From Alphaproteobacteria bacterium (GTDB taxonomy: Bacteria; Pseudomonadota; Alphaproteobacteria; UBA7879): DNA of 64,000 nt. The DNA is taken from positions 170,925 through 234,924 of the forward strand of contig CBCXTT010000002.1 in NCBI GenBank assembly GCA_965178295.1. Direction: 5' to 3'. The translations under genes were made by a program, and so were the position numbers. Below are positions 10,967 through 61,401 of this stretch, in pieces (position 1 is the stretch's first letter; every line of letters begins with the position of its first letter). Under the pieces are notes generated by a model. It searched no databases, was not told the DNA's origin, and saw only the letters and a list, made by a program, of their open reading frames with translations.

Positions 10967-12790
10967 CTATTCTGCCGAACGCTTGTGGCGTTTTCGCTCA
11001 TTGGGATCTAAATATCGCTTCCGCAAGCGAATCGTTGCAGGCGTAATTTCAACTAATTCATCATTTTCAATATAGGACAAAGCCTGTTCCAAAGTAAACT
11101 CTTTAGGCGGCGTCAAACGAATACCCTCATCCTTACCAGAAGCGCGAACATTTGAAAGTTTTTTTCCTTTAATAGGGTTCACATCTAAATCATTCTCACG
11201 ACTATGCTCACCAATCACCATACCTTCATATACCTCTACACCAGAATGAGTGAAAAGGATACCCCGATCTTCGAGATTCCATAAAGAATAAGCTGTTGTT
11301 TTACCTGGGCTATTAGAAATCAGAACACCCATGCGACGTCCATCAATATCGCCCCGATATAGCTCATATCCCGCAAATGAGCGATTCATAATACCTGTGC
11401 CACGCGTATCCGTTAGAAATTCGTTGCGATACCCAATCAGGCCCCGAGAAGGACAGCTAAATGTTAAGCGAATCTTATTGCCACCTATAGGTGCCATATC
11501 TGACATCTCTGCCTTACGCAGACCCAGTTTTTCAATTACAACGCCTGTATAGGGCTCATCCACATCTACCTGGACTATTTCTACGGGCTCAAGACGTTTC
11601 CCTGTGCTGTCTGTCTTAAAAAGAACCCTCGGGCGACTGATCGAAAGTTCAAAGCCTTCGCGGCGCATGGTCTCAATCAACACACCTAGCTGAAGCTCCC
11701 CACGACCGGATACTTCATAAGCATCCTTGTGCTCTGTTTCTTGGACACGAATAGAAATATTTCCCTCCATCTCAGCCATTAAGCGATCGCGAATCATACG
11801 TGAAGTCAATTTATTGCCCTCACGTCCCGCTAAGGGAGAGTCATTCACAGAAAATGTCATCGATAGCGTGGGTGGATCAATAGGAGTGGCCAACAGTGCA
11901 TTCTCACACTCAAGAGCGCATACAGTATCCGCTACTGTCGCGTCCTTTAAACCAGCAAAGGCAATAATCTGGCCTGTTACAGCTTCTTCAAGGGCAATTT
12001 TTTCAACCCCTCGTGCAATAAACATCTTAGTGAGACGTCCTTGCTCCTTAAAAGAGCCATCAGGATTCAGTGCCTTAATTGGCATATTAAGTTTGGCCAC
12101 ACCCTGCTCTATACGCCCTGTTAAGATACGCCCAACAAACGGGTCTGCCTCAAGAATCGTTGCAAGAACCTGAAATGGTCCTGCTCCATTGCCCTGAGGG
12201 GGAGCAACATATTCCACAATTTTCTCAAAAACAATTTTCATATTGTCCCGCGGGCCATCCAGGCTACTCGATGCCCACCCCTGCTTTGCAGAAGCATAAA
12301 TCTGCGGGAAATCAAGCTGGGAATCAGTTGCATTTAGTGCCACAAAAAGATCAAAAATCTCTTCTTCAACCGCATCACAACGAGCATCTGATTTATCGAC
12401 TTTATTAATTACCACAATCGGCTTCAACCCTTGTTCCAATGCCTTTGTTAAGACAAACTTTGTTTGTGGCATTGGCCCTTCTGCTGCATCAATTAAAATT
12501 AGGACACCATCGACCATACCCAAAATACGCTCAACTTCACCTCCAAAGTCCGCGTGTCCCGGGGTATCCACAATGTTAAGTTGATAGCCATTCCACTCAA
12601 TAGATGTCGTTTTGGCAAGAATAGTGATACCGCGCTCTTTCTCAATATCATTGGAATCCATCACCCGATGGTCAACATTTTTATGTGCTTTAAAGGTCCC
12701 ACTTTGTTGTAAAAGCTGATCAATGAGGGATGTTTTTCCATGGTCAACGTGCGCAATAATTGCAACGTTGCGAATGTTGTGCTGCTGCAT
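10967..12790 (-). CDS. typA: translational GTPase TypA/BipA
   Basis: 607 aa. The G domain reads IRNVAIIAHVDHGKTSLIDQLL...DTPGHADFGGEVER...NKVDK. EF-G-like domains follow. Confidence 0.95.
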   Translation of the reverse strand: MQQHNIRNVAIIAHVDHGKTSLIDQLLQQSGTFKAHKNVDHRVMDSNDIEKERGITILAKTTSIEWNGYQLNIVDTPGHADFGGEVERILGMVDGVLILIDAAEGPMPQTKFVLTKALEQGLKPIVVINKVDKSDARCDAVEEEIFDLFVALNATDSQLDFPQIYASAKQGWASSSLDGPRDNMKIVFEKIVEYVAPPQGNGAGPFQVLATILEADPFVGRILTGRIEQGVAKLNMPIKALNPDGSFKEQGRLTKMFIARGVEKIALEEAVTGQIIAFAGLKDATVADTVCALECENALLATPIDPPTLSMTFSVNDSPLAGREGNKLTSRMIRDRLMAEMEGNISIRVQETEHKDAYEVSGRGELQLGVLIETMRREGFELSISRPRVLFKTDSTGKRLEPVEIVQVDVDEPYTGVVIEKLGLRKAEMSDMAPIGGNKIRLTFSCPSRGLIGYRNEFLTDTRGTGIMNRSFAGYELYRGDIDGRRMGVLISNSPGKTTAYSLWNLEDRGILFTHSGVEVYEGMVIGEHSRENDLDVNPIKGKKLSNVRASGKDEGIRLTPPKEFTLEQALSYIENDELVEITPATIRLRKRYLDPNERKRHKRSAE

Positions 12791-14538
12791 GTTCTGTCTT
12801 CTCTTATCTTTCCAATAATGCTATTCAGGTATTGTCAGGCGCTCCCGCCAATCCGCTAGTATGACTACCACTGCTCTCAGAGGGCTATCAATTTCATTAA
12901 CAGGTAGTTTCTGGCTTATATCATACAAATACTCGATTGCAAACAAATCTCCTATGCGCATTTTACTCACAACACATCCTGCGATGAAACGGGGTTGATC
13001 AAAAATTCCATCGAGCGGGATAATCAACACACTATCTTGTATGGCACAAGAAAAAATTTTCTCGCAGTGTCTGCGCAATTTGAGAACAATATTGATCAAT
13101 CACAATCTTCAAATTCTTCTAAATTATCAGCTAATATATTAGCATTGTCCCAAATCATGATCCGCTATAGGCGTTTATTATTGTTTGCACAGATAACACA
13201 AGATAAGGTAGCAGTGTCTTGCGCTCCAGATGCAGTATCACAATTTTATGTTAAAGCCTTGCTGCACAAGCCTGGAAGATCTCAACAGTAGCGCTCCATA
13301 AAACAACAGATTGATATTTTGTACAACACCTATTGGCCGCTCATCAGGAAAGAGAGCCATCGAGATACAGAGCGCGGCGGGTTGCTCATAGTCCATACCT
13401 CCAAGTCTGTCGTGAAAAACCGACACAACGCCCCGTACTCAGATCATTATCTTTCTTTCTTACCAAACACTGTCGCCTGCCGCTTCTAATGCATTCTCCA
13501 CAGTGCATACATGCTTTCAAGAGAACGGGAGAGTGCTGCGCGTCTTTTGCAAGATCCACAGTTTCCAAAAACACCCCATCAGTGCGGTCCGGGAACATAA
13601 AAAATGGCTAACCCAAGATCACACCATCATCTCTTGTGTACATTGCGTGCTCTTTCCATATGTTTACATAGAGCTCAAAAAAGCCTAAAAATTCTTCTTC
13701 ATCCTCAAACGTGTGCTGTTATTGCCAATAACAATCACAAATATACTGTCCGCTACAAATATCAGGGACCAGAAGAGAAGAACAGGTGCAATAATAAGGG
13801 AGTGTTTTGGGCATTAGTGGTTGTATAGGTAATAGGTGGCGCCTAACTGGACACTTTGTGTTTTATCATACAACACGAAACGTTCGTTGATCAGGGCAAT
13901 AATGATCCGCAAGGAAAAATTGCGCACCTCACTGAGATGCGCGTAGTCGCGCGCGCACATCATCACAAGCATCCAGTAAAGGCATGTTATGCACACTGCT
14001 GTCTCTCTTTAAGTACAGTACTTGAAAATTGGGTAAAACCGATGCAAACAGAAGGAAAGTTAATCTACCAGTAAAAAGATGGGTTCCGGAAGAACCAACG
14101 GGTGCATATTACGCTCCCATCTCTCGGCATGTTCACATCTCTTAGCGCAAAAGAACTGCTTGCTTTATCTGGACGTCTTTTGGAGATGGCATAGCCATAG
14201 AGTATACGGCACAGTCAATTATCTCTACACAAACCACTCTTCCTATCCATCATTTAATCAATATTGGAATCACTGCATTGCTGCTCTATAGGAATGCGCA
14301 AGAAGAGAATCCTGAATTTGTGCTTCAGTTTAGTATGCGCTATTCCCGCTTCAAGCATGTCCCGTTCTTGATAATCTGTCCGCATTTTATCATATCAAGC
14401 GCTGTTTTCATACTACTCTAATTGCCTTTCATGCAATCGGCCTCTTTCTTTTTTTAAGCAGTCATATATTTCTGTGCTTGATTTGTCTTAAGAGATTCTG
14501 CAAGCTGGAGCTAAGGGCCCAAAGAGAGAAGATGTGTA

Positions 14539-26733: not shown

Positions 26734-28805
26734 CCTTCTAGCGCACCAAAAATCAAGCACTTGGTGAAACAAAGACCGCACACGCCCCAAGAGATGTAAG
26801 CGTGTCTGCGCAACTTTTATATCATCAACTATCACGACACTTTCATCTAAAAAGCGATTAATACACACACTGATCTGCACGAGTTTAGAGAGCTGTCCAG
26901 AAAGTGTGCATGCCATATAAACAGGTCCAGAGAGTTGCACGGCTAAATCTTTTTCGGCACTGTCACGCAATGCATTATCGCACATACCCGTACCATCAAA
27001 ACACACATTCTGCTTTTTTTCTATCTGGTTCAAGATATTAGAAACCCGTTTGTATGCTGTCAACACACCCACGCCTTCTGCGGTTTCAAAGAATTTTTTA
27101 GCACAGAAAGTGCGTTGGTCATAACATAAAAGTCCACCATTTCTGAGTGATTTAATACACTCAATATATGGTCATAACGGTAGCCTTTATCTTTCATATA
27201 CACATGAAAACGATCTTGTAAAAATTTCCACAGAAACGCTAACGTCTTAGCCTTCTCTTGTTTTCCAGGCACATTAAGCTGATCATAGGCAAAATTCATG
27301 GTTTGCTTTATATCAAGAGACCATTTATTCTCAATCAGCAAACGTAGACACCCTAAGGCCGAACGACGCAAGGCAAAAGGATCTTTAGAACTAGTAGGCA
27401 TGATCCCAACACTGAAAAATGCAATCAACGTATCCAATTTATCGGCAAGCGCCAACACCCGGCTTGACGGTGCGTTTGGACAAACATCGCTCGGTCCTTT
27501 AGGAAAATAATGTTCGCGAATTGCAAGAGCCACATTGTCAGATTTCCCCTGTGCAATTGCATAATAGCATCCTGTGATACCTTGCAATTCTGGAAACTCT
27601 CCAACCATGGCCGTTGCAAGATCTGCCTTGCATAAACGAGCGGCTTCTTCCGCATCTTCAAGTTCTGGAGCTATATTTTGAACCAGCCTTTCCAAGCGCG
27701 TGACCTTTTCTAGCATCGTTCCTAACTGAGCATGAAAGGCTTGTTGTTCTAAACATGCACTCCAAGTGTCAAGGGTGCGCTTTTGATCTTGCTTCCAAAA
27801 AAATGAGGCGTCGGCAAGGCGTGCGGTAAGTGTTTTTTCATTTCCCCGGATAATTTGTTCCCCGCCATCCAGCGCTACCATATTAGAGACGAAGAAAAAA
27901 TAGGGTGCAAGTCGGCCATTCTTTTTTGTTGCAAAACACTTTTGATGTGTCCGCATACTCGTCACCAGAATCTCAGCTGGAAAAGACAAGTATTCTTGTG
28001 AAAAATGCCCCCTGAATATCACGGGCCACTCAACTAGCCCTACCACCTCTTCCAACAATTGTTCATCAAGAACAACGTCAAGATTTGCAGACGCCGCATG
28101 CGCTTCCAACTGGATCCTCACATCATTCCGACGTGCATCTTGATCAATTATCACATATGCAGAGGCGAGTTGTGTTTTATAGGCGTCAAAAGTCCGTACG
28201 GCAAAGGATTTTGGTGCCAGAAAACGATGCCCCATTGTTATATCACCCACAGTAACATGGGGATGCGGCGCATCAAGTGGAATGATTTCTCCATCAAAAA
28301 CAGCCAGCAGTGATTTCAGAGGGCGTACCCATTTAAAACTCGACGCCCCCCAGCGCATGGATTTAGGCCACTTAAAAGAGCGCATCAACCCAAACAATAC
28401 CTCTGAGAGCAAAGCGCTAGTAGCAATACCACCCTGGACACTGGGAGCGAAAAAAAATGTCCCCTTTTTTGGAAGCTCTCGCGTCTTTAGGTCATCCATG
28501 GTCAGGGCCGTTGACGATAAAAAACCCTGAATCGCTGCATCAGATGCCTTAACACTTGGTCCTTTGAGTTCTATATATTTCTTGGGCTGCATTGTTGGCA
28601 AACCTACAACATGTGCAATGAGCCGCCGCGGCGTCGTATAAATATTCATGCCATCATACGGTAGATTATATGAATCCAAAGCCGAGACAAGCCTTTCTTT
28701 AAGCTGAGCCCTTGCTCCAGGTTGCATACGTGCGGGCATTTCCTCAGACAATATCTCCATAAAAAACTCAGCCATCTCGATCCTCGTGATCCTTCCAAAG
28801 CGCAC
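26665..28805 (-). CDS. glyS: glycine--tRNA ligase beta subunit, interrupted by one frameshift near an A6 run
   Basis: ORF 27060..28805 (581 aa, GlyS N-terminal and central regions) plus ORF 26665..27072 (135 aa, C-terminal [11 protein letters not shown]... region). They overlap by 13 nt. The join lies at or next to GTGCTAAAAAATTC (27090-27098 on the + strand). Likely true start [14 protein letters not shown] at 28775, forming an ATGGCTGA overlap with the glyQ stop. Confidence 0.88.
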
Positions 28806-29637
28806 AGGAGCTTTTTGCTAAATGGCGAATGCGACCAATATATGCCGCCCGGTCACACACACTGATTGCCCCACGTGCATCCAATAAATTAAAAAGGTGG
28901 CTCGCCTTGATACAATGATCATAGGCCGCAAGTGGCAAATCTTTTTCTATAAGCACGCCGCACGCGTCTTCTGCCATTTCAAACTGTTTGAGAAGATGTG
29001 CAATATTGGCATGCTCAAAATTGTAGGATGAAAACTGTTGTTCATTCTTGAGGAACACATCGCCATAGGTAATTTTCTCCTCCCCTTCATACCCGTTCCA
29101 GTTCAAATTAAAAAAGCTGTCACAATCTTGTACAAAAATCGCCAAGCGTTCAAGACCATATGTGAGCTCCAGGGACACGGGATCACATGGGATGCCGCCA
29201 ACTTGCTGAAAATATGTATACTGACTAACTTCGGCACCATTGCACCATACTTCCCAACCAAGACCGGAGGCCCCTAAAGTGGGGCTTTCCCAATCATCTT
29301 CGACAAAACAAATGTCATGTTCCGGAGCTTCAAGACCAAGAGCGGCCAGACTCCCCAGGTATAGTTCCTGCGCATTCTCAGGTGATGGCTTAATAATCAC
29401 CTGAAACTGATAGTAATGTTGTGTGCGGTTTGGATTGTTTCCATAGCGACCGTCTGTTGGTCGCCTAGATGGTTGTACATAGGAACATTTCCATGGCTTG
29501 GGCCCCAGGGAGCGAAGCGTCGTTGCAGGATGAAAAGTGCCTGCACCCACTTCAAGGTCATAGGGCTGCAAAATAGCGCACCCTTGTTCCGCCCAATAAC
29601 GCTGTAGTGTTAAAATAATTTCTTGAAAACTTAGCAT
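28768..29637 (-). CDS. glyQ: glycine--tRNA ligase alpha subunit
   Basis: 289 aa; [46 protein letters not shown] is the highly conserved GlyQ N-terminus. Confidence 0.95.
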
Positions 29638-32386: not shown

Positions 32387-33505
32387 TCAAGGTACACAAT
32401 AAACAGCCGAAGAAGGAATATAGCGATGACAAATAGCCTCTGCAAAACCCTTTTCCTGCAGCCTCAAAAGACTATGGTTTATTTTCTCTTTATACGGACT
32501 CCCCTTTGGCAAGGAAAAAGAGACTTCGTCAATCGCAAGCCGTATATCAGAGACTTTAAGGGCGAAATTTTTATGCTCTTGCACTTCTTGCGCAAGAGAT
32601 ACGTAGTCATCGATTACAACATCCACCTCCTGAGTGTGAAGCGCCTCTATAGCCGCATCTAATGTTTCGTAAGAGATCACTTTTGCAGTTGATCGCTTCG
32701 CTATTACAGCATTCTCTGAACCCCGTACAACCCCCGAGACCATATCCTGTAAATCCTCAATGTTTGAAATTGTCTGATTATTGTAGCTATACAAGGTAGA
32801 AGATAAAGCACTTGTAATCATACCAAAAAAACCCGATACAAAAACGAGTGATACAATAAGCCAAAAAGCCATAAAAACTCGCGCTTGGGGCCCTTCTGGT
32901 CTGTATAAAACTTTGATTTGAATAAGGCGCGCAAACATAAACCACATACTGTCGCCAATACCTCGAAAATACCTTGTGCTGATTTCAGGAGCATGCCATC
33001 TGTAAAAAAACCAATACACATGCGCAGCAACAATAAAGAAAATAGCAATAATAAAGAAACCGACCTCACCCAATTTTTTCATAAATATGTGTAATGCATC
33101 TAAAAAACCTAAATGAATCTCATGAAACGCCACACCTATTTGCTCAATAAAAAAAGGGCGCGTAAAGTCCAAGCGTGACAGCCTATCTCGTGTAGCAGAA
33201 ACAGGGCCAAGAACGAGATCAATGTGACCGTTTTCAAGAGACTCCAGAGCTGAGGAAATATTAGAACCAAGAGATGTAAGGGTATAGGACAATTGATTGT
33301 CCTGCGCAATTTCGTCCCATATGTCAATTGCAAATCCAGAGGGAATGTCTGAAGAAAGAAAAGAAAACGGTTTATGGTCAACGTATCCAACACGCACATC
33401 AATAGCACACAGAAAAGTGGGCCAGAGAAAAATAATGATAAATCGCTTGATCACGTTATTATGCCTCCCTTCTTTCATTTGATCTTCCTTAAAAAAATCT
33501 GTCAA
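32387..33505 (-). CDS. ionotropic glutamate receptor-like ligand-gated channel (GluR0-type: periplasmic SBP lobe 1 - M1 - pore loop - M2 - SBP lobe 2)
   Basis: 372 aa. Signal/TM segment first, then an SBP_bac_3-like lobe (VRVGYVDHKPFSF...GHIDLVLGPVSATRDRLSRLDFTRPF). Next comes TM VGFFIIAIFFIVAAHVYWFF, then a pore-helix-like FRGIGDSMWFMFARLIQ (compare iGluR SLWFSLGAFMQQG), then TM VFMAFWLIVSLVFVSGFFGMITSALSS (compare iGluR M3 ...ISSYTANLAAFLT). A second SBP lobe follows (…VDVVIDDYVSLAQEV...SFSLPKGSPYKEKINHSLLRLQEKG). No TVGYG K+ filter and no M4. Probable true start at MKEGRHNN. Confidence 0.7.
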   Translation of the reverse strand: MTDFFKEDQMKEGRHNNVIKRFIIIFLWPTFLCAIDVRVGYVDHKPFSFLSSDIPSGFAIDIWDEIAQDNQLSYTLTSLGSNISSALESLENGHIDLVLGPVSATRDRLSRLDFTRPFFIEQIGVAFHEIHLGFLDALHIFMKKLGEVGFFIIAIFFIVAAHVYWFFYRWHAPEISTRYFRGIGDSMWFMFARLIQIKVLYRPEGPQARVFMAFWLIVSLVFVSGFFGMITSALSSTLYSYNNQTISNIEDLQDMVSGVVRGSENAVIAKRSTAKVISYETLDAAIEALHTQEVDVVIDDYVSLAQEVQEHKNFALKVSDIRLAIDEVSFSLPKGSPYKEKINHSLLRLQEKGFAEAICHRYIPSSAVYCVP

Positions 33506-33587
33506 GCAAACTTTTTAGACGCGTCGGCATGTTTTACACGTATACTAGAAAAGAGTCACATGGTCACGATGTAAAGTTTAAGAGCTG

Positions 33588-35531
33588 ATGATACGCCTTG
33601 CATACCTCATTCTGTTTTATTTCATAGCATGCGCATACAGCACAAGGGCGGAGGACATACCAAGTACATGCATTCAAGCGCTGAAACACACACTGAACAA
33701 CACACACATGCCTCAAAAAATTCCTAAAAATTGTAAGATTGTTGGCGATTTTCTTGCCTGGTATCAATATCAAGAAACTACAAAACATAATGATTTTGAT
33801 AAAATTATGTTTTTTATTCATACACATCCATCTTGGCCCAAGATAAAGGTGTTGCAACAGCGAGCCGAAGAAAGTATCGCCAGCACAACTTCTTCTAGCA
33901 CAATTATTCGCTGGTTCATGCAGTATACACCAATTACAAGTGTCGGCAACATCCACTATGCACATGCATTGCTACAATCTGGAAAAGAAGTGGAAGCAGT
34001 AATACAAATTAAACACGCCTGGCGCAAGCAACAGATGACACAAAAACAACAGAAATTCTTCTACCAGAAATATAAGAAGTACTTAAATACGAAAGATTTA
34101 ATGCATCGGCTTGAAACACTTGGATGGAGCAGCAATAGCAAAGGCATATATGGCCTTAAAAGCTACCTAAGTGCAGAGATTCAAAATTTAGCACTCGCTC
34201 TGATTGGATTAATACAGCGTGAAAGCAACATTGATATCCTCATCAAAAAAGTTCCCTCGCGATATCAACACCATCCTCTTCTACTATTTCACCGCATTAA
34301 ATGGCGCCTTAGACATAAAAAATATGATAGCGCGCTTGCATTAATGCACAAAGCAATCACAGAAAAAGCAGATACAGCGAATCCTGCTGCCTGGCTGCAA
34401 ATTCGGCGCACACTATATCGCTACTTGCTGAAAAAAAAACAGTACAAAGAGGCCTATCATATCATACAGCATCATGTAGAAAAAGACCCAAAAGCAGTGG
34501 ACTTAGAATGGTGTTCTGGCTGGATTGCCTTAAGATTTTTAGACGATCCAGAGCGTGCAAACACTCATTTTCAAAACGTCTATTATATAGCGACAACACC
34601 CATAAGCCAGGCCAAGGGATGTTACTGGGTCGCTCAAGCACAAAAAAAAATGGGAAATATTCAAGCGTATAAGGACTGGCTGAAAAGAGCGAGTAATTTT
34701 TACATTACGTTTTACGGTCAGCTAGCGCAACAAGAGCTTTACGGGAAGATTTCCATTACGCTAAAAGAAGGCATATCTGCAAAAAACTTAAATCACTTAT
34801 GGGATGAGTATATCAATCTTTTCTCTGTACTAAAAAAGTGGGAATTGAGTCGCCATATAAAACCTTTTTTACTCCACATGGCGCATGCATCAAAATCACC
34901 ACAAGATCAGGAGTTTGCAGTTAAAATGGCGGCACAATATGCGCCAGAGTTTATAGTACTCACAACAAAAGTTGCAGGACGCAAGGGTATGATCCCACTG
35001 GATATTACATTCCCAACATTAACATTACACCAGATCCCCAAAAAAATACCCGTCGATCTAGCCGTTATACATGCTGTTATTCGCCAGGAGAGCGGATTTG
35101 ATCAATATGGAACCAGTCCTGCCGGTGCACAGGGTTTGATGCAACTGATGCCAGAAGTCGCCAAAAATGTTGCACAAAGATGGAAGATACCCTTTACAAA
35201 AGGCTGTCTCCATAACGCTTCACATATGAATGTACAGATTGGAAGCACCCACATGGCGGACTTACTCAAGACTTTTGAAGGGGATATTATTCTCTCCCTT
35301 GCAAGCTATAATGCCGGTCTTAGTAATGTGAAAAAATGGATTAAACACTATGGAGATCCACGAAAAAATGTGCATATATTGGATTGGATTGAAACAATCC
35401 CCTTCAAAGAAACGCGTTCATACATATATCGCGTTTTAGAATCTGTCTCTATTTATGAAAGTATGCTTAATACGAAGAGTCCACATGGTGTTTCTTCGCT
35501 AAGAATGCCCAGCCTCGAGAAAACAACATAG
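33588..35531 (+). CDS. slt: soluble lytic murein transglycosylase (Slt family)
   Basis: 647 aa. Signal peptide, superhelical repeat region, and a C-terminal SLT catalytic domain (VIRQESGFDQYGTSPAGAQGLMQLMPEVAKNVA...ASYNAG). Confidence 0.85.
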   Translation: MIRLAYLILFYFIACAYSTRAEDIPSTCIQALKHTLNNTHMPQKIPKNCKIVGDFLAWYQYQETTKHNDFDKIMFFIHTHPSWPKIKVLQQRAEESIASTTSSSTIIRWFMQYTPITSVGNIHYAHALLQSGKEVEAVIQIKHAWRKQQMTQKQQKFFYQKYKKYLNTKDLMHRLETLGWSSNSKGIYGLKSYLSAEIQNLALALIGLIQRESNIDILIKKVPSRYQHHPLLLFHRIKWRLRHKKYDSALALMHKAITEKADTANPAAWLQIRRTLYRYLLKKKQYKEAYHIIQHHVEKDPKAVDLEWCSGWIALRFLDDPERANTHFQNVYYIATTPISQAKGCYWVAQAQKKMGNIQAYKDWLKRASNFYITFYGQLAQQELYGKISITLKEGISAKNLNHLWDEYINLFSVLKKWELSRHIKPFLLHMAHASKSPQDQEFAVKMAAQYAPEFIVLTTKVAGRKGMIPLDITFPTLTLHQIPKKIPVDLAVIHAVIRQESGFDQYGTSPAGAQGLMQLMPEVAKNVAQRWKIPFTKGCLHNASHMNVQIGSTHMADLLKTFEGDIILSLASYNAGLSNVKKWIKHYGDPRKNVHILDWIETIPFKETRSYIYRVLESVSIYESMLNTKSPHGVSSLRMPSLEKTT

Positions 35532-36729
35532 CAAATGCCCCGTTTCCAAAAACATTAAAGGCCGTATTAACCGGATCAGCCAAAATATAAAGGGTTGTAA
35601 TCAACGCCCCCATCTCTGGTGAAAACTGAAAACACTGCTCCAAAAGCGGCAGCATCACAATAATTCCACCACCTGGTACACCGGCAATTGAAAACTTAAT
35701 GAGCACAAAATACCCTGCAAATACGAGATATTCCATCAAAGTTGGCATTGTTCCACCAAAGCCAAGCATAATAGCCATTGCAAGCAAGGGGACGCCCAAG
35801 CTATCGCCCACTAGGTGAATGTTGGTCGTCATTGGAACTACTGCATCTATACTAGGATCATGCTTTGTATTGAGACGCACCCCTGAAATAGTAAGTGGTA
35901 AAGCGGCCGCACTTGACATTGTAGTACCCGCTGCCACTAACGCTGGAAACATATTGCGCACAGACGCAACAAAAGCATGAAAACGGAATTTCGATGCACC
36001 CGCATAAAGTAGAGTGGTATAAGACAGTTGCAGCAGGCAAATAAGAATTAAAACAGATCCACATTGTTGTAGCAGCGTGTCCATAAGACCTTCAGCAGAA
36101 AACTTCAAAACAAACCCAAAAATAAACACAGGAACAAGGGGCACAAAAAAACGATAGAGAAAGACATTAATCATGACTGTTGCCCCCTCTTGAAAACGCT
36201 GCAAAAACAAGCGTGGCAAATAGCCACTTAACGCACCCAAAATCAGTCCTGTAAAAAGAGCCGTGTCATTTGCCAAAAACTTCGGCAAAAAAAAGTCCCA
36301 GAGGGGCGTAGTGACTTGATTGCTAGAATCCATACAAAGCGCCAAAGGAAAGTGTGGTAAGGTCATTTGACTGACGCCATACGAAATCATCGCAGAGACA
36401 AAATTAGACCCGCAAATGCATAGCAATAAACATAGGACAAACAAAAAAATACCACCATGCATACGCGATATAGCAAGAAAAAGAAACATAAAGATCAGAA
36501 AAGGTAAAATAAAAATCAGGATTTCTTTAAGGCTCAAGCTCAGCGCAAAAAAGAAAGAAATCATACCTGACGGCATCCAGTCTACACAAACATACGCTGT
36601 GAAAAGTAGCATGATAATTTGCACTGGTAAACTTTTTAAATGAAAAAAAATTCGTCTAGTGGTTGTGATCATTCTCATATTCTCGCCGTTTGCGCATAGC
36701 GAGTATAACAAATATTGAGAGCCAAACAA
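35467..36729 (-). CDS. dicarboxylate/amino acid:cation symporter (DAACS; GltP/SstT-like)
   Basis: Polytopic membrane protein with DAACS signatures (MSSAAALPLTISG; AGVPGGGIIVMLPLL). The track ORF overlaps SURF1. Likely true start at MLLFTAY, about 36612. Confidence 0.75.
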   Translation of the reverse strand: MFGSQYLLYSLCANGENMRMITTTRRIFFHLKSLPVQIIMLLFTAYVCVDWMPSGMISFFFALSLSLKEILIFILPFLIFMFLFLAISRMHGGIFLFVLCLLLCICGSNFVSAMISYGVSQMTLPHFPLALCMDSSNQVTTPLWDFFLPKFLANDTALFTGLILGALSGYLPRLFLQRFQEGATVMINVFLYRFFVPLVPVFIFGFVLKFSAEGLMDTLLQQCGSVLILICLLQLSYTTLLYAGASKFRFHAFVASVRNMFPALVAAGTTMSSAAALPLTISGVRLNTKHDPSIDAVVPMTTNIHLVGDSLGVPLLAMAIMLGFGGTMPTLMEYLVFAGYFVLIKFSIAGVPGGGIIVMLPLLEQCFQFSPEMGALITTLYILADPVNTAFNVFGNGAFAMLFSRGWAFLAKKHHVDSSY

Positions 36730-37386: not shown

Positions 37387-38274
37387 TCAAGAGCCCCACC
37401 AATAGACAAAAACAAAAACAAATAGCCAGATAACATCCAAAAAATGCCAGTACCAGGCAGCCGCATCAAGTCCAACACAATGATCGATAGTAAATCGTTT
37501 TTTCAGTGCCCTAAAAAAACAAACAACTAAAAATAGCGTCCCAAACAGGACATGTGCTCCATGCAAACCTGTTAACATATAAAAATTAGAGCCATATATA
37601 CCATCTTTAAGCGTAAACGTCGCGTTCAGATATTCAAGCGCCTGAATACAGGTAAATACAAGCCCCAAACATATAGTTACAAATAATCCTTGTAAGACGG
37701 CCTTGTTCTGACGACCATGCTTTACAGCTGCGTGGGCCCATGTTAGACTAGTCGCGGATAAAAGGAGCAATAGCGTATTAAGATAGGGCAGATGAAACGG
37801 ATCAATAGGCTGAATATTCTTAGGTGGCCACATGCTTCCAATAGCTTCTGCAGGACTGAAGCTTGCATCAAAAAAAGACCAGAAAAAAGCAAAAAACAAC
37901 ATAACTTCTGACACGATAAAAAAGGCCATGCCCAGCCGAAGCCCCTTTTGCACAACGCATGTATGATGATGCTCTAGAGATTCTCTAATAACATCTCTCC
38001 ACCAACCGGCAGAAACAAGCACCAAGAAAGCAATACCTATCCAAAAAACAATTTTTTCATAGTCGTGCACATATAGCACCATCCCGATCGCCACAACAAA
38101 TAATGCTAACGCGGTTACAAACGGCCAAGCACTCGGTTCAACCAAATGATAATTATGATGTTGGGCTTTTTGTGACATGGTGCGCCTCTCTCTCATCGTC
38201 GTCCGCCCACCATGAGGAGATAAAAGCCCCCACAGTACCGCCCTTAGGATACCCAAATTTTTTAGACGACGCAA
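37387..38274 (-). CDS. ctaE: cytochrome c oxidase subunit III
   Basis: COX3 signature (…HHHTCVVQKGLRLGMAFFIVSEVMLFFAFFW…WYWHFLDVIWLFVFVFVYWWGS). Likely true start MSQKAQHHNYHLV at about 38178; the ORF upstream of that overlaps the preceding gene. Confidence 0.9.
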   Translation of the reverse strand: MRRLKNLGILRAVLWGLLSPHGGRTTMRERRTMSQKAQHHNYHLVEPSAWPFVTALALFVVAIGMVLYVHDYEKIVFWIGIAFLVLVSAGWWRDVIRESLEHHHTCVVQKGLRLGMAFFIVSEVMLFFAFFWSFFDASFSPAEAIGSMWPPKNIQPIDPFHLPYLNTLLLLLSATSLTWAHAAVKHGRQNKAVLQGLFVTICLGLVFTCIQALEYLNATFTLKDGIYGSNFYMLTGLHGAHVLFGTLFLVVCFFRALKKRFTIDHCVGLDAAAWYWHFLDVIWLFVFVFVYWWGS

Positions 38275-39829
38275 TTATATGTTGTTTGGCATAATAAAAT
38301 GGAATCACTAAAATTTCCTTACGCAACATATGATCCAGGGCCTGTCCACTATGCTTCAACTTTTCTAAATTATATGTTCTACTGATTACCTCAATAAGCT
38401 TATCCACTTGATCATTCACCACTCCCGTATAATTCTTGCTTCCTTGTTTGTGAGCAAATTTGCTTAAAAAATGGCTTTGAAGACTATAGTTTGGAAATCG
38501 ATGACCGGGCCATTGATGGAATGCCATATCAAAATTAAAATCATTTTTCTTTTGTGCAAATTCTACTTCGGGCAGCACATGAATACTGCTAGTGATGCCA
38601 ACAGCACGCAAGCGCCGCACAAACTCTTGAACCACCTTAGTATATGTTTTGTTTGGCATCATAATGCGGAATGTAAAATTAGCGTTAAATCGTTGATTGT
38701 ACAATACCCCGTCCCGCATTTTCCATCCTGCTTCCCTCAACAATCTCCGCGCACTTTTAAGACGCGTATTCCATAATTGATCAGATTCCTCCCACGGCAG
38801 CACCTCTGAAGAGGCGTACGATGTATTTTCAAAAAAGCTTTTTATTTGAACCGCTCGGCCGCTAAAAGAAATTTGGTTAAACCAGTGAAAATCAAAAATT
38901 AGGTAAAGGGCTTCTCGAACTTTTACATCATGAAAAAATGTATGTCGCGTATTAAAAATAAGCCCTTTCATGCCAACTGGACGCGTCTGATCTTGCATAA
39001 GTAAATGTGTCTGAGAGGATAGTCTGTCCAAGTACCGAATACTTTCTGGTGAAAGATCAAAGCAAACATCCACTATACCTTTGCGCAACGCCTCAACAAG
39101 CGCCAGCGCGTTCTTGTAATACTTCACAATGACAGTATCAAAGTTAAACCTTCCTTTATGCACAAATAAATCTTTTGCCCAATAATCCTGTACTCGAGAG
39201 AATTTTACATAGTCTCCAAGTTTGTATTCATCAAGTTTATAGGGGCCGCACGAGCGAATGTCTCCATCAATATTCTTAATAACAGGCATCATTGCTAAAA
39301 ATGCAATAAGCTGCGGTTTGTAGGTACTACCTTCTTTCAACTGAAAAGCGATGCGGTGTGCATCTGTTATGTGCACAGACTGTATTTGTGTAAAGATATT
39401 TTTCTGCAAAGGTGTCCCCTCTCTGCCCCAACATACAAACGCTTCTTTAACATCCACAGCTGTTACAGGTGTGCCATCTTCCCAATGTGCTTTAGGATTA
39501 ATGGAAAAAGTTACACAGTTGTCTTTGATACTTAGGTCTTCTGCAATTTGCGGATAAAGGGACAAAGGCTCGTCCATGGATTGGCTCATGAGTTTGCCCA
39601 AGGACAGCGAAAGATAGCGATCCGCCCTCCCAACAAAGTTCAGCGGGTTCAGAGTATCAACAGTACCAACCACACCCACCACCACAGTACCAGACTTGGG
39701 TGCGTCTGGTTCTACGTAAGAAAAATGGGTGTCTTCTGCACTATATTTGAGGGTCTCAAAGGGCGTATACCCATAGTCCGAACAAGCGGTCATGCATGCA
39801 AAAAAAATACCTGCGACACAAATACGCAT
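38153..39829 (-). CDS. ABC transporter substrate-binding protein, family 5 (peptide/opine/nickel type; YejA-like), no adjacent permease or ATPase genes
   Basis: 558 aa with an N-terminal lipoprotein-like signal (MRICVAGIFFACMTACS) and a large SBP_bac_5 fold. It is flanked by ctaE and an MFS gene, not by ABC membrane or ATPase components. Confidence 0.8.
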   Translation of the reverse strand: MRICVAGIFFACMTACSDYGYTPFETLKYSAEDTHFSYVEPDAPKSGTVVVGVVGTVDTLNPLNFVGRADRYLSLSLGKLMSQSMDEPLSLYPQIAEDLSIKDNCVTFSINPKAHWEDGTPVTAVDVKEAFVCWGREGTPLQKNIFTQIQSVHITDAHRIAFQLKEGSTYKPQLIAFLAMMPVIKNIDGDIRSCGPYKLDEYKLGDYVKFSRVQDYWAKDLFVHKGRFNFDTVIVKYYKNALALVEALRKGIVDVCFDLSPESIRYLDRLSSQTHLLMQDQTRPVGMKGLIFNTRHTFFHDVKVREALYLIFDFHWFNQISFSGRAVQIKSFFENTSYASSEVLPWEESDQLWNTRLKSARRLLREAGWKMRDGVLYNQRFNANFTFRIMMPNKTYTKVVQEFVRRLRAVGITSSIHVLPEVEFAQKKNDFNFDMAFHQWPGHRFPNYSLQSHFLSKFAHKQGSKNYTGVVNDQVDKLIEVISRTYNLEKLKHSGQALDHMLRKEILVIPFYYAKQHIIASSKKFGYPKGGTVGAFISSWWADDDEREAHHVTKSPTS

Positions 39830-41071: not shown

Positions 41072-42597
41072 ACCTCCTTAACGCTTCATAAAAAGTTGCA
41101 TGAAGCTTTTCTCAAAAACATATTTCAAAATAGGAGTTAGTATAGACAGAAACTTCTTACTTTGCAAATTCTGCCTCCTCAGCGTTTCTTATTGGTTAAT
41201 TTTGATGTAAAAAATGGTTGCTAATTTATTCACAAGTACTATATTATATAGAAATATTGAATATATGAAAAATATGTTTGGAAACACCCCGAAATCACCC
41301 TCCTATTGTTACACAAAGCTGATGGGAGATTGGGATTATGCAGCAGCTATGCTCGCTGTTATTACGATTTCTGCTCTTTGGAAGCTCAATCCCACATTGA
41401 CTATCTGCGCTCAGTTATGGATCAAAGCCGTGCGACAGTGTGAGTGCACGAACAATACCTCAACATCAACAAAATGGATATTGTCCAGGCACAAATCCTC
41501 TCCAACAGTCAAATGATAAGCGTAGTAAAAATGACAGAAGTGGTGGCATAGAGGAAGATATGGGATCAGTATGGGGCACATATTGTAAGAAAACTGCGTC
41601 TCTCCGAGGGCTGCACAAGCGATGGAAGCACTACGTTGAGCAGGAGACGTCATCTCACAGAGAGATCAGATGACGGGATTACCATTTTCTACAACATTGA
41701 TGATACAATGCCTAGGATTTCTCACCCTTCTTGAGAGTATAGGGTGCGCGTCTACCCAAACACTTCCAAAAGTACGCATCCAAACCCGCTACAGGGTGTG
41801 TAGTATCCACAAATTTGTGCTATTGAGCGCTCTCATATACGTCATACACGCATCCTCCCCCCTACACAAGAAATTCCATGCGGCATAGAGAGCTAAAAAA
41901 TGTAGCGGTTTGAGGTCATCTGTCGGGAAAACATGACTCTGGTACGCCCAACATGCTACTCTAGATAGAGGTCCAAAAATTCCAACAACAGTCAGACTAC
42001 ATATGCGTCATATGCGATTATCTCTTCATCCCACCCCGCACTTATACAGGTATACCACGAAGCCGATCCCAGAGAAAATTGGCGGTTCCTCTCTTATATG
42101 GCAAGTGTGACGAAAAGTCGCCAAATCAATCAGAAGAGATAGTAATATATAAAATATACAGTAATAAAAATCATAACTGCTTTCTTGGGAGATCCATTGG
42201 AGAAGATGCATATCCGGCCTACTCTTCAGTGCTGCACAAAAAGGTGACAATTAGTGGTGTAGAAAAAATGATAAAAGAAACGCTAGTACACATTCTAGCC
42301 TCAATGCGTGATACGACTAGAGGGGTAAAATACACTACTAAAAATCTTGTCTTTTTTTATCACTATTGTTCTGAACACGAGTATTAGTTAAGTTGCACTC
42401 TACGCGCTCTCCCTTCCTCTCACATCTCTTTTAACCCTGCAACAGAGTTCAGAATCTGAGACTCTTTCAGCTTCTAACGCTGATGATACTTTGGTAATCC
42501 TGAAGCAAGAGAAGCTCTGCATTAATTAATATAAAATAGTGTTTCTTCCGTGCCACTTTGAAGAAAAAGAACAGACAAGAAACCAGCGAAAAAACAT

Positions 42598-42651
42598 TAC
42601 TATGCAAGATAGCGCAACTATGCAAGATAGCGCAACTATGCAAGATAGCGC
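42598..42651. repeat. 18-bp tandem repeat x3 (ACTATGCAAGATAGCGCA), in-frame within a small ORF (MQDSAT x3)
   Basis: Three perfect 18-bp units at 42598-42651, then a degenerate fourth (CAAATACAAGATTGT). Confidence 0.9.
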
Positions 42652-42763
42652 ACAAATACAAGATTGTATGAATGCTCTTGAAAATCGTGTTTTTATACTT
42701 ACACAAGCCGCCTCTAGTAATAACGGCGCTCTACGTGTGCACCAAATGTGGTCTCTGCAGTAA
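42601..42763 (+). CDS. hypothetical small protein (about 53 aa) with N-terminal MQDSAT hexapeptide repeats
   Basis: The first canonical ATG lies inside the repeat. The ORF reads MQDSATMQDSATMQDSAQIQDCMNALENRVFILTQAASSNNGALRVHQMWSLQ*. There is no obvious SD. A second mini-ORF starting ATGCAAGAT (MQDAGAARR...) lies at 44292..44420 and is followed by a hairpin plus T-run. Confidence 0.2.
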
Positions 42764-44435
42764 AAATATGCAGAAAATTAGTAGAGAAATTTCCTGACTT
42801 ATGGCTCAGGTATGAGATAGTATTCACGTGCGTCCGTTTCTGGTGTGCAAAAATTTATATCCACGGCACGTCTGAACTGTGCACTAAGAAGTGATGAGAC
42901 GAATGCGTCGTCACGCACAGCACAAAAAAGCTTCTATCGCACTGCACATGTTGGAACTTCCCTTGGACAAAGATACATAAATTTCATAGATTGATCTGTT
43001 AAAATTCTGTATATAGCGCGGCCTTAACGTTGCAATTCTGTGCTGATTACATAAAGGTGTAGATTGAATTGTCTCAGACTCATAGAAGTAGTGGAAACAC
43101 AGAGGAAATGCTCTTCAGCAGTAGAGATTCGGCCTCCAATCCTGACCTAGAGATGCGGATAAGAGATCCTTCCAACGTTCGAGGGCGGCTGATGTGCTCT
43201 ATGCATAGGTATACACAGCACACTCACAATCAAAAAGATTAGCCATTAGGCATGAGGAATGCAGCATGCACAGTGAGCGTCAGGGGCAATCTGTGTGAAC
43301 ACTGCAGCAACTTCCAGAGGTGTGATCGAAAATCAGTTGGGATTGCCAGAAATGGCTGGTCACATAAAGCATCGAATCAAAAACATGACATCAAACATAG
43401 TACAAAAGACAATATACGCAATATATCCATTACTCTCTATAATCACAGTGTCAATACTGCATTGCAAATACGAGCTTGATAAGACTGTGGACAATAATAG
43501 TGCCATGCAATAGCGTGGAAAGTGCAAAAAGTAGAGATATAGAAAAAAGCATCATCATATCAAAAGGAGCTCTAGATATGAGTGATTATAGCATTAATCT
43601 TTCTGGACAAATCGTTTAGGTGAATATGCAACTAACACTCATGTATAAAGCGCACGCAATAATAGGCGTACACAGCACTGAGTAATAAATATATTCCCTG
43701 TCAGGCAATCAGGGTAGAAATATTTTTGTCCACGTCACACAGGTGAGAGTCTACATCCAAGCGTCGTAGAGTTACCATAAGGACCTGGATTACTATCGTC
43801 CAAAAAAGTCTTTTTACTGCACACAGAGCACAGGGGTTTTTCAGATTTTGTTACACAGTGTTTCACACTAAATTACTACAGAATAGCAACTGCTGTACAA
43901 GTGGAAAACACCACACAAAGTTGTCCGATTTTGGTCAGCAGTCTTCATATCGATAACCGTTGCGGCGATATTGACTATGATGGAATATTTAGATGCTCAT
44001 TAGATCCAAAAAATTCCTGAAATTACACTATCCGGAGCAGATAGTGGATCAATCTATGGGCACTGAGATAGAGTGCACTCTTATTATAAACGCAGGTTTG
44101 AGTGCACCGACAACAGGGGGGTGGAAGAAGGAACCATCAAGCTTAAACAATTTAAATTCCAAAAATCACATCTTCTCAATTGCAAGTAGCGGTTAGTTCT
44201 CGAACATACTGCATGGTATTTCCATAGCATGGTATTGCGTACAATATTGCGTATATTGCATAGTGATTTCACCTTTAACAGAATAAATGCCATGCAAGAT
44301 GCAGGAGCCGCGCGCAGAATGCATCCACTGAATCCGTCTCAAGATAATGGAGCGATACAGAAGAAGGCACATAAGATAAGAATTGACGATGCACAACATC
44401 CTGAAGTTAGTACATCATAAAACACAACCCCCCCT

Positions 44436-44460
44436 CTCTCTACGCTGAGAGTACTTTTTC
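44436..44460 (+). terminator. putative rho-independent terminator (CTCTC-tacgct-GAGAG + TACTTTTTC) on + strand
   Basis: Hairpin directly followed by a T-run on the + strand. It overlaps the gltX stop on the opposite strand. It sits 16 nt after the stop of the + strand mini-ORF 44292..44420. Confidence 0.3.
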
Positions 44461-50291: not shown

Positions 50292-52940
50292 TCATGTTGA
50301 GACCATTACCTGAAGTCGATTAAGAGCATCTTTGTTCTTTTGTAAGGTCTCTCTATCGCAAGCCAGTTGATCACGTGCTTTCTCAATCACTAAAAAAGGC
50401 GCTTTGGCTATAAACTCTCCGTTATTGAGACGTTTTGATGTATGCTCTATAGCGCGCGTACATTGATCAATTTTTTTCTTGAGGCGAGCTTGCTCCACAG
50501 AAAGATCAATAATGCCATCAATAGGAATAAAGAAAATATCTTTCTCCACAATCATTTGTAACATGTTTTGCCCTGGTGTAGTTGCGGCTTTGATGTTTTG
50601 AATGCACCCAAGCTTGCAAATGATATCTGTGTGTCGCTTAAGTCGTTCTTTGGTTGGTATATCCGTAGTCCCAATATATATATCCAGCTTTACCGCGGAT
50701 GGTAAGTGCATTTCTGCACGCAATGATCGAACAGCAGAGACAAACGCAATAAGCCAGCTGATCTCTTTTTCTGCATTATTGAAATTTTGAGTAAGAGTTG
50801 TATCCGGCCACTTACCTGTGATCAGAGCTGTTTTTCCACCCAGCACTTCCCAGAGCGCTTCTGTTGTATAAGGAATAATAGGGTGAAGCAGATGATATAA
50901 TGTACCTAACGCCCAAGATATGGTGCGTTTTGTTTCTGTGACGATCTCCCGCTCTGTGCTGGAGAGCAACGGTTTTGTAATTTCAAGATACCAATCACAA
51001 AACGCACCCCATGTGAAATGGTACAGTTTTGATGCAGCCTCATTGAATCGGTACGTATTGAGACTGTTGGAGACATCGTGAATAAGATCGGTAAGTTGGG
51101 AGGCCATCCATTGATTCGCGACCACCTTACATGTATTGGGATCAAAAGTGTCCTGCCAAGAAGCGCCAGCCATGATGGCATACCGTGATGCATTCCATAA
51201 TTTTGTAATAAAATTACGACCACCTGTTATTTTGTCTTCTGATGCGCGAATATCTCGGCCAATGGTTGCAAGCTGTGCTAAAGAAAATCTCAAGGCATCC
51301 GCTCCGTATTGCTCAATAAGGGCAAGTGGGTCGATTACATTTCCCTTAGACTTAGACATTTTTTGACCGTTTTGATCGCATACCAGAGCATGCACATATA
51401 CTGTTTTAAACGGTACTTGTTTAGTGAAATGCAAGCCCATCATCATCATCCGCGCCACCCAGAAGAAAATAATGTCAAATCCAGTAACAAGAACGGATGT
51501 CGGGTAGAATTTTTCCATTTCAGATGTGCGCTCAGGCCATCCAAGAGACGTCAGTGGCCAGAGGGCTGACGAAAACCATGTATCTAGAACATCTTCATCC
51601 TGCACAAGAGGCGTCGAGGTGCCGTAATGTGTATGCGCCTGTTGTGCCGCATCTACTTCATCGTGAGCAACAAATATGTGGCCATCTGGCCCGTACCAGG
51701 CTGGAACCTGATGCCCCCACCATATTTGTCGCGAAATGCACCAAGGCTGTATGTTGCGCATCCACTCAAAATAAGTAGTTTTCCAATTGTCGGGGACAAA
51801 TTTTGTCTCACCAGATTCAATGGCTTCAATGGCAGGTTTTGCCAGTATTTTAGCATCTAAAAACCACTGCTCTGTTAGGTATGGCTCAATGACAATGTCA
51901 GATTTTTCACCGTATGGCACGACATGTGAGATGACTTCAGTTTTTTCTAAAAGATCTAAGCGTTCAAATGATTCTAATACTTTTTGTCGTGCCTCATTAA
52001 GTGTCAGTCCTCTAAAGTCCAGGGGCACAGCATCATTCTCATTAAGCCTGAGCTCTCTAGTAAGAATATTAATGACAGGTAGATCGTGTCGTTTCCCTAC
52101 CTCAAAGTCATTGAAATCATGAGCGGGCGTTATCTTAACGGCACCGCTACCTTTTTCAGGGTCTGTATACGTATCGGCAATGATAGGTATGCGGCGACCT
52201 ATGATAGGAAGCAGAATTTCTTGTCCAACCATATGTTTGTATCTTTCATCGTGTGGATGAACAGCAACCGCAGTATCACCAAAAAAGGTTTCAGGCCGTG
52301 TTGTGGCAACAATAATGTGCTCTGTGGTACTATCTGCCACAGGGTATTTTAAATGCCACATATGTCCGAGCTCTTCTTTTTGTACAACCTCCAAATCGGA
52401 AATAGCTGTTTGAAATTTAGAATCCCAATTTATGAGTCGTTTGTCTTTGTATATTATCTTTTCTTGATAGAGCTTGACAAATACATCACGCACAACGCTA
52501 TTTGCTGCTGCATCCATTGTGAATCGCTCTCGTGACCATAAGGCGCTAGCACCTAATTGTTTCAGTTGGCGCACGATATTGCTTCCGGATTTTTCTTTCC
52601 ACGCCCAGACATGGTTGATAAATTCTTCTCGGCCCAATTCATGTCTAAAGATATTGTTGTCATTTAACTGGCGTTCAACGACACACTGGGTTGCAATGCC
52701 TGCATGGTCTGTTCCAGGCTGCCATAGGACATCTTGTCCCAACATTCTGTGATAGCGAATTAAAATGTCTTGTATGGTAAAAGTGAGTGCATGCCCTAGG
52801 TGCAGAGATCCTGTGACATTCGCAGGCGGCATAATAATACTATAAGGCGCTGAATCTGTGCTGGATAAATGTGTGGTGCAGTGCCATTTCTTTCTATATT
52901 GGGCCTCGATTTCAGAAAAAATAGGTTTTGTTTCTAACAT
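50292..52940 (-). CDS. valS: valine--tRNA ligase
   Basis: 882 aa. HIGH-type motif PPANVTGSLHLGHAL, KMSKS motif, and a C-terminal coiled coil. Confidence 0.95.
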   Translation of the reverse strand: MLETKPIFSEIEAQYRKKWHCTTHLSSTDSAPYSIIMPPANVTGSLHLGHALTFTIQDILIRYHRMLGQDVLWQPGTDHAGIATQCVVERQLNDNNIFRHELGREEFINHVWAWKEKSGSNIVRQLKQLGASALWSRERFTMDAAANSVVRDVFVKLYQEKIIYKDKRLINWDSKFQTAISDLEVVQKEELGHMWHLKYPVADSTTEHIIVATTRPETFFGDTAVAVHPHDERYKHMVGQEILLPIIGRRIPIIADTYTDPEKGSGAVKITPAHDFNDFEVGKRHDLPVINILTRELRLNENDAVPLDFRGLTLNEARQKVLESFERLDLLEKTEVISHVVPYGEKSDIVIEPYLTEQWFLDAKILAKPAIEAIESGETKFVPDNWKTTYFEWMRNIQPWCISRQIWWGHQVPAWYGPDGHIFVAHDEVDAAQQAHTHYGTSTPLVQDEDVLDTWFSSALWPLTSLGWPERTSEMEKFYPTSVLVTGFDIIFFWVARMMMMGLHFTKQVPFKTVYVHALVCDQNGQKMSKSKGNVIDPLALIEQYGADALRFSLAQLATIGRDIRASEDKITGGRNFITKLWNASRYAIMAGASWQDTFDPNTCKVVANQWMASQLTDLIHDVSNSLNTYRFNEAASKLYHFTWGAFCDWYLEITKPLLSSTEREIVTETKRTISWALGTLYHLLHPIIPYTTEALWEVLGGKTALITGKWPDTTLTQNFNNAEKEISWLIAFVSAVRSLRAEMHLPSAVKLDIYIGTTDIPTKERLKRHTDIICKLGCIQNIKAATTPGQNMLQMIVEKDIFFIPIDGIIDLSVEQARLKKKIDQCTRAIEHTSKRLNNGEFIAKAPFLVIEKARDQLACDRETLQKNKDALNRLQVMVST

Positions 52941-59279: not shown

Positions 59280-59867
59280 ATGAAAAAAGCCAAAATGAAA
59301 AGCACCACGAAAGAGAGCGCGATTATCGCGATGATTGCTGAAAGCTTAAGCCGGCAAGTGTTTACATCCCATGATGCCAGTCGGATAGCAGTCCAGCTTG
59401 ATGTTTGGTGTTCTTTATTCTGTATCTGCGATGCATTCGTCGATATTTTTAATAACCCACTCATTGAAGAAAATGAGAAATCTGTTGTAGCGGCATCCTT
59501 TTTGCCTGATGATGATCTATCGTTTTTCAGAGCACTCTTGAATGCGCTTTCAGATATGGGTCAGATGAATGTATTGCCTGCATTAGCTTGGGATCTGCGA
59601 GCATTGATTGCAAAGAAACAGGGGCATCTTACAGCATCTGTAACGACTATGATTGCTTTGGATGCAGTACAAAAAAAAGGCTTCTCGGAAGTACTGAAAC
59701 AGCACTTTGGGGGACAAGTAGAGATTGAAAATAATATATCTCAAAAAGTGTTGGGGGGCTTTGTGTTGAGAATGGGAAATTATATTTTTGATGCCTCTTT
59801 ACGACACGATTTTTATGTGCTTGAGCGACAAATGAAAGGCCTAGACCATGGCGTTAACAGCAGCTGA
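59280..59867 (+). CDS. atpH: F0F1 ATP synthase subunit delta
   Basis: 195 aa. C-terminal ...[18 protein letters not shown] is typical of OSCP/delta. First gene of atpHAGDC. Confidence 0.8.

Positions 59868-61388: not shown

Positions 61389-61401
<13 letters not shown>
59848..61401 (+). CDS. atpA: F0F1 ATP synthase subunit alpha
   Basis: 517 aa. Walker [10 protein letters not shown] and highly conserved alpha-subunit sequence. Confidence 0.97.

Follow-up and report, generated by a model that had tools for sequence, protein, structure and literature searches.

What is encoded by a bacterial gene whose product reads at both ends as an amino-acid-binding protein and in the middle as a piece of ion channel? 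Such a gene occupies an intact minus-strand open reading frame (ORF) at 32387-33505 of the window, the whole 64,000-nucleotide stretch of alphaproteobacterial DNA analysed here (contig CBCXTT010000002.1 of assembly GCA_965178295.1, positions 170,925 to 234,924). An earlier note on this DNA had called the product a homologue of the ionotropic glutamate receptors (iGluRs), quoting the motifs SMWFMFARLIQ and FVSGFFGMITSALSS, both of which are found in the ORF; that identification is correct, and the rarity and novelty attached to it were over-rated. We consider the protein to be, with fair probability, a prokaryotic iGluR-type subunit of the class that lacks a potassium filter ('Group 2' of Ger et al., 2010), and by analogy with its characterised relatives it would most likely act as a periplasmic, amino-acid-gated, tetrameric pore-loop (P-loop) channel without K+ selectivity. 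Its architecture and fold, the ligand contacts and the affinity of the pore class were computed here, whilst the tetramer, its gating and the ion flux are drawn from GluR0 and the eukaryotic iGluRs. Residue numbers refer to the 363-aa form of the protein (gene 32387-33478) except where ORF residues are stated.

The Pfam SBP_bac_3 profile matches residues 38-363 (61 bits), the full span of the mature protein, and inside this match lies one to Lig_chan (PF00060; ORF residues 152-256; 44.9 bits against a gathering score of 30.8; E=1.3e-11). The substrate-binding protein (SBP) fold is in this way split by an insert of about 115 residues, which matches Lig_chan and folds as M1-P-M3, and the split-domain result that the earlier note had expected of a profile search was obtained; Ion_trans and Lig_chan-Glu_bd score just below their Pfam thresholds. 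By hydropathy the protein is hydrophobic in three places, about residues 17-41, 140-170 and 205-238. An AlphaFold model of the monomer, built from an alignment of 150 relatives (predicted local distance difference test (pLDDT) score 91.8, predicted template modelling score 0.83) and used instead of that from the single sequence alone (pLDDT 41), has, in order, a signal helix (7-18), S1 as a beta/alpha lobe, the pre-M1 helix at 125-135, M1 at 137-159, the short helix of residues 170-186, the loop of 187-196, M3 as a long helix (197-234) and, ending at 361, the S2 lobe. The re-entrant segment between two transmembrane (TM) helices, which the earlier note had proposed to look for by structure prediction, is therefore present in the model, and its claim of an iGluR topology without M4 agrees with the placing of M1, pore helix, loop and M3 between the two lobes. 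Both M4 and an amino-terminal domain are lacking, S1 following directly on the signal peptide and the last S2 helix ending at residue 361.

The best solved relatives by sequence are the ligand-binding cores of GluR0 (Slr1257) and of Nostoc punctiforme GluR0, the former aligning as two blocks either side of the hydrophobic insert, and the next best are full-length kainate and AMPA receptors, which align through the insert (residues 56-359); the similarity to the solved GluR0, kainate and AMPA structures is far more than chance provides. By structure, the top 47 Foldseek matches are all ligand-binding domain–transmembrane domain chains of AMPA receptors, nearly full length, and over nearly the whole of the protein this is the fold of the eukaryotic iGluRs (AMPA GluA2, kainate, NMDA, delta and the plant GLR3.4). 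Unlike these, to which its sequence identity is only 14-19%, the window protein lacks an amino-terminal domain, an M4 helix, a cytoplasmic tail and the acidic '+4' residue.

From the TTG start given in the ORF list the protein has 372 aa. An ATG at 33478, nine codons downstream, has AAGGAAG 6-7 nt upstream of it, at Shine-Dalgarno distance, and gives a 363-aa product identical to the NCBI-derived protein P0001; it is more likely to be the start than the TTG at 33505. The features of the gene and of the region upstream of it are as follows.

32387 to 33478, minus strand: gene of the iGluR homologue, 363 aa plus stop (stop codon 32387-32389), from the ORF list, the AAGGAAG sequence and identity to P0001.
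33404 to 33478, minus strand: signal peptide, residues 1-25, MKEGRHNNVIKRFIIIFLWPTFLCA, with a basic n-region and a hydrophobic core, from hydropathy and the model (helix 7-18, first beta-strand at 27).
33119 to 33403, minus strand: S1 clamshell segment, residues 26-120, with the alpha-carboxylate motif P92-x-S94-x-T96-x2-R99.
33002 to 33106, minus strand: pre-M1 helix (125-135) and M1 TM helix (137-159), from AlphaFold, hydropathy and the onset of the Lig_chan match.
32921 to 32971, minus strand: re-entrant pore helix M2, residues 170-186, YFRGIGDSMWFMFARLI, with the family-conserved G173 and W179, from AlphaFold, conservation and an ungapped alignment to GluA2 M2.
32891 to 32920, minus strand: filter-equivalent loop, residues 187-196, QIKVLYRPEG, without TVGYG, from the alignment of 150 relatives and HMMER alignments to GluA2.
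32777 to 32890, minus strand: M3 TM (gate) helix, residues 197-234, with the conserved R200, W206 and T222, from AlphaFold, conservation and alignments.
32390 to 32776, minus strand: S2 clamshell segment, residues 235-363, with G253-S254, the alpha-amino contact D291 and the conserved Cys pair C350/C361, after which the protein ends with no M4, from phmmer to the GluR0 core (query 248-351), column counts and the invariance of the two cysteines amongst the closest relatives.
33479 to 33587, no strand: divergent intergenic region of 109 bp common to the gene and slt, presumed to be a promoter region, from the ORF map (slt start 33588).

Cleavage of the signal peptide after LCA is plausible from its sequence, which has no lipobox.

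What kind of pore does the inserted module resemble? The potassium signature T-x-V-G-Y-G is absent from the window protein, whose loop reads QIKVLYRP. Amongst the 150 best relatives, TTVGYGD is present in 50 and absent from 100, the nearest relatives of the window protein included, and the loop of the window protein and of these nearest relatives is one residue shorter than in the relatives with the K+ filter. In Pfam searches Ion_trans_2 (PF07885) matches all five of the K-filter relatives tested and none of the five filter-less ones, nor the window protein; Lig_chan matches all eleven proteins, filter-less P0004 only below the gathering score. A profile made from the channel segments of 31 filter-less sequences, with the window protein first, was searched against the PDB, where its top 60 matches are all iGluRs (AtGLR3.4 best at 3.2e-10, then GluA2 at 1.5e-8), whilst the top 60 matches of the K-filter channel profile are all K+ channels (MloK1 at 2e-16, then KcsA, Kv and KCNQ). 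Since the one profile finds iGluRs and the other K+ channels, a eukaryote-like pore is supported for the class, and it is at this class level that the profiles and Ion_trans_2 support the earlier suggestion of a pore that, without TVGYG, lies nearer to that of eukaryotic iGluRs than to that of GluR0.

Within the protein itself the pore helix, loop and M3 align to GluA2 without gaps and with the same loop length (HMMER). Q187 stands opposite the first Gln of GluA2 MQQGCD, which we take to be the Q/R site, and P194 opposite the Pro of SPR (HMMER). The channel positions that are nearly invariant in the filter-less group (the W in M1, G173, W179, P194, W206 and T222) are all kept, as are the four that are conserved in both the filter-less and the K-filter groups (W179, P194, R200 and W206), and the channel module carries the M3 'TS-LT' motif. 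In M3, SGFFGMITSALS takes the position of iGluR SYTANLAAFLT, the eukaryotic SYTANLAAF gate motif being only loosely kept as SGFFGMITSAL.

In the ligand site, the S1 motif P92-x-S94-x-T96-x2-R99, together with G253-S254 and D291 of S2, aligns with GluR0 residues. In the contact columns of 150 relatives the R occurs 132 times and the D 101 times, with T at 113 in one column and S or T at 113 in another. The residues predicted to hold an amino acid by its alpha-carboxylate and alpha-amino groups (S94, T96, R99, S254 and D291) are all intact. This contact set is established for the iGluR and GluR0 cores and has been noted for Groups 1 and 2 (PMC2950845). Glutamate is not assured as the ligand, because the residue after S254 is Glu255, at a position that is mostly Thr or Ser in K-filter relatives and varies amongst filter-less ones; glutamate-binding iGluRs have there the Thr that contacts the side-chain carboxylate of the ligand. 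A Cys-x10-Cys pair, C350/C361 (window 32390-32431), does not vary within the closest filter-less subgroup and forms part of the consensus of all 150 relatives (ICxxYLxxxxxxC). It probably makes a disulfide in lobe 2, as would suit the oxidising periplasm, and so recalls the one that eukaryotic iGluRs conserve in that lobe.

How common are such proteins? An exhaustive HMMER search of 1.84 billion cluster representatives matched 3,034 at E<1e-3, 1,224 at E<1e-10 and 62 at E<1e-30, the closest match apart from the protein itself had 33% identity, and all 150 best matches contain the channel insert. With thousands of matches and at most 33% identity, the family is large and the window protein an outlier in it. 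The earlier view that bacterial iGluRs of this kind are sparse does not agree with 1,224 representatives at E<1e-10. A word-indexed homology search queried with this one sequence recovered nothing but the protein itself, and a single-protein locus search of the GTDB species representatives found none. In a neighbour-joining tree the window protein groups with P0003 and P0044 as a small clade of filter-less members, the deeper topology not being relied on at 20-30% identity. In the four filter-less relatives with usable contigs the genes stand alone, with no adjacent ABC (ATP-binding cassette) permease and no partner common across clades. Two of these, P0160 and P0162, come from different metagenomes (L082 4647-7077 and L083 934-3377) and divergently adjoin a threonine dehydratase gene (PALP + Thr_dehydrat_C) and an alpha/beta-hydrolase gene; the other two, P0030 and P0151 (L081 and L084), have a 96-aa ORF before them and two large proteins without Pfam matches after them. 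Both surroundings look like clade-specific conserved neighbourhoods.

The class is an established one. Ger, Rendon, Tilson and Jakobsson (2010; PLoS One 5:e12827, PMC2950845) searched for this topology and obtained 22 putative prokaryotic channels, of which Group 1, including GluR0, has the K+ filter, whilst Group 2 has a P-region unlike any known filter, is nearer to the eukaryotic iGluRs and had been mis-annotated as ABC binding proteins. The window protein resembles Group 2 in its S1-M1-P-M3-S2 order with a signal peptide, in having no K+ signature, in the S1 Arg and the S2 Asp, in its standalone gene and in belonging to a class whose pore is nearer to eukaryotic iGluRs than to K+ channels, and Group 2 occurs in alphaproteobacteria among others. 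One Group 2 accession, YP_168531.1, is presumably from the alphaproteobacterium Ruegeria pomeroyi. Unlike other Group 2 members, the window protein has two basic residues in its loop, QIKVLYRP, where its nearest relatives mostly have FLR-DVLYDP. GluR0 (Slr1257) of Synechocystis PCC 6803, the sole bacterial iGluR with functional data in the literature searched (Chen et al., 1999, as cited in later papers), carries TVGYG and is K+-selective; unlike it, the window protein has no TVGYG, a loop one residue shorter and no Ion_trans_2 match. Of the features that sequence and model can show, the window protein has all those of the prokaryotic iGluR architecture and of Group 2, and it lacks those of a GluR0-type K+ channel. 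It is a very divergent member of a class known from sequence surveys since 2010 and common in metagenomes, and it opens no new question, given that the class, its eukaryote-like pore and its ABC mis-annotation were published in 2010 and that more than 1,000 diverged relatives are known from metagenomes. Filter-less bacterial iGluRs have been proposed as the link from the K+-channel-like GluR0 to the non-selective cation pores of animal and plant receptors, and a compact 363-aa protein with a confident model and the conserved scaffold kept could be a test case for electrophysiology or cryo-EM.

By homology, a mechanism can be sketched. The cleavable signal peptide should direct the N-terminus to the periplasm, and four subunits would surround a single central pore, the loop entering it from the cytoplasmic side. 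Binding of a periplasmic amino acid would close the clamshell, which would pull on the M3 helices and open the gate; ions would then run down their gradient and shift the membrane potential, so that external amino-acid availability would be read as an electrical or ionic signal. K+ selectivity is not expected because QIKVLYRP replaces the canonical TVGYG filter.

Several observations weigh against this channel. The lone channel segment is not significantly similar to GluA2 (E of 2 or more), so that the relation to GluA2 draws its significance only from searches with the full-length protein and with profiles. Within the filter-less group positions 187-193 vary strongly, and the sequence therefore holds no recognisable selectivity signature. 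The loop carries Lys189 and Arg193 and no acidic '+4' residue, which could lower cation conductance, and M3 has F-G where the family consensus is T-A. Our literature search gave no functional data for any filter-less bacterial member, only GluR0 having been shown to conduct. The unconserved loop and its basic residues speak for a non-conducting, membrane-embedded amino-acid sensor or receptor, which would bind its ligand and signal via protein contacts, the pore module having degenerated to an anchor or scaffold. We regard such a sensor as unlikely, though it is the main rival to the channel. In the closest subgroup the invariant positions fall mostly in the channel module (G173, W179, P194, W206 and T222), S2 contributing only the Cys pair, and a mere anchor needs no conserved pore helix, post-loop Pro or M3 'TS-LT' motif. 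Nor does the protein have a cytoplasmic output domain, and no recurrent partner gene was seen near its relatives. We infer from these points a channel rather than a sensor.

The same loop admits a second alternative, in which the protein is an amino-acid-gated channel with properties unprecedented in the family, being anion-permeable or of very low cation conductance and taking a neutral or basic amino acid, not glutamate, as its ligand. This is suggested by the basic ring that Lys189 and Arg193 of each subunit would form, by the lack of an acidic '+4' residue and by Glu255, and we hold it to be rather improbable. Were it true, a genome-reduced and possibly host-associated alphaproteobacterium might sense host amino-acid levels with an unusual channel, and such a eukaryote-like pore in an alphaproteobacterium would also bear on the origin of eukaryotic iGluR pores.

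Less probable again is a relic gene without current function, drifting to loss in a reducing genome. In its favour, only about 79% of the window is coding, the protein is at most 33% identical to any other and it departs from the family consensus at some M3 positions. The window also has two gene-free stretches, 41072-44439 (3.4 kb) and 12791-14538 (1.7 kb), in which no ORF longer than 102 aa and no Rfam match was found; eight ORF fragments from the longer one gave no Pfam matches, and both may be pseudogene debris of a genome undergoing reduction. Against this, the ORF is intact at full family length, the signal peptide, ligand-backbone contacts, near-invariant channel residues and Cys pair are kept, and the AlphaFold confidence is very high. 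The intact ORF, the Shine-Dalgarno sequence and a codon usage that ranks 12 of 20 in the window and is typical of it make the gene look native and not decayed. Moreover, ten housekeeping proteins of the window (GlyQ, GltX, HemB, AtpA, Slt, ZnuA-like, TypA, SucB, ValS and TolC-like, including those encoded at 28768-29637, 59848-61401, 10967-12790 and 50292-52940) each form a cluster of one at 90% identity within a set of about 15 billion proteins, all ten coming from a single 362-kb NCBI contig, and the divergence is for this reason better read as an effect of lineage than as decay of the gene. The source lineage is isolated and has no sequenced close relative: GlyQ is at best 70-71% identical to any GTDB species representative, the best matches being alphaproteobacterial (e.g. 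Sneathiella and Rhodospirillaceae metagenome-assembled genomes). The earlier note had spoken of a host-associated-looking alphaproteobacterium; GlyQ gives moderate support to the alphaproteobacterium, and host association is only suggested, by the low coding density and the gene-free stretches.

An ordinary SBP of an amino-acid ABC transporter, tethered by its hydrophobic segments, is very improbable. The nearest NCBIfam models are indeed GlnH, ArgT and cystine-binding proteins, and JGI calls some relatives 'polar amino acid transport system substrate-binding protein'. The NCBIfam scores, however, are far under their cut-offs (GlnH 67.7 against 303 bits) and the matches fall in two pieces; the fold is interrupted by the Lig_chan module. 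The class F SBPs of ABC importers (GlnH, ArtJ and the LAO-binding protein) are contiguous, soluble or lipid-anchored and encoded beside permease and ATPase genes, whereas the window protein is split by a pore module and its gene is alone: no ABC permease or ATPase gene adjoins it (ORF map, Pfam) or the genes of the four relatives. The earlier note had likewise judged it not to be an ABC-system SBP, and both the split fold and the lack of adjacent ABC genes bear this out. Least probable of all is a K+-selective, glutamate-gated channel of the GluR0 type like Synechocystis Slr1257, against which stand the missing TxVGYG, a loop one residue short of that of the K-filter relatives, the lack of an Ion_trans_2 match and a channel class that finds iGluRs, not K+ channels, in profile searches.

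We return to the iGluR-type channel gene and its surroundings. As the earlier note had it, the gene stands alone and is divergent from slt, as the ORF map confirms, the two being separated by the 109 bp listed above; on its other side it converges with an OPT oligopeptide transporter gene. A consensus scan for sigma-70-like promoters and terminators gave nothing strong above the shuffle expectation. Recent horizontal transfer was considered and rejected, the GC content at third codon positions (GC3) being, like the codon usage, typical of the window, and a role in a defence system was rejected because PADLOC gave no matches. When the glyQ loci of 80 other proteobacteria (±10 kb) were searched, an iGluR-like gene was found at E≤0.01 in none of the 80, with the control GlyQ found in all 80.

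The neighbours are the OPT transporter gene, slt, an SDF symporter gene and glyQS. The SDF-family (sodium:dicarboxylate) symporter gene (35467-36729, minus strand), two genes away and beyond slt, encodes a divergent, weakly matching protein (Pfam 1.8e-30, without an NCBIfam equivalog). The longest ORF of this gene runs 65 nt into the 3' end of slt and shares 74 nt with a SURF1-like ORF, which makes an internal start probable. With a carrier of amino acids or dicarboxylates so close to an amino-acid-gated channel, a functional link is possible, and so is coincidence. The remainder of the window is housekeeping chromosome, with sucAB-lpd, typA, hemB, addAB, glyQS, gltX, valS, atpA and several major facilitator superfamily (MFS) transporter genes, and the sole complete ABC system found in it is of the Znu type, for metal, and lies about 14 kb from the iGluR homologue. 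Two further binding-protein genes, SBP_bac_5 at 38153-39829 (minus strand, between cox3 and an MFS transporter gene) and Peripla_BP_6 at 57187-58362 (plus strand), have no adjacent ABC permease or ATPase ORFs on the ORF map; gene loss may have orphaned them.

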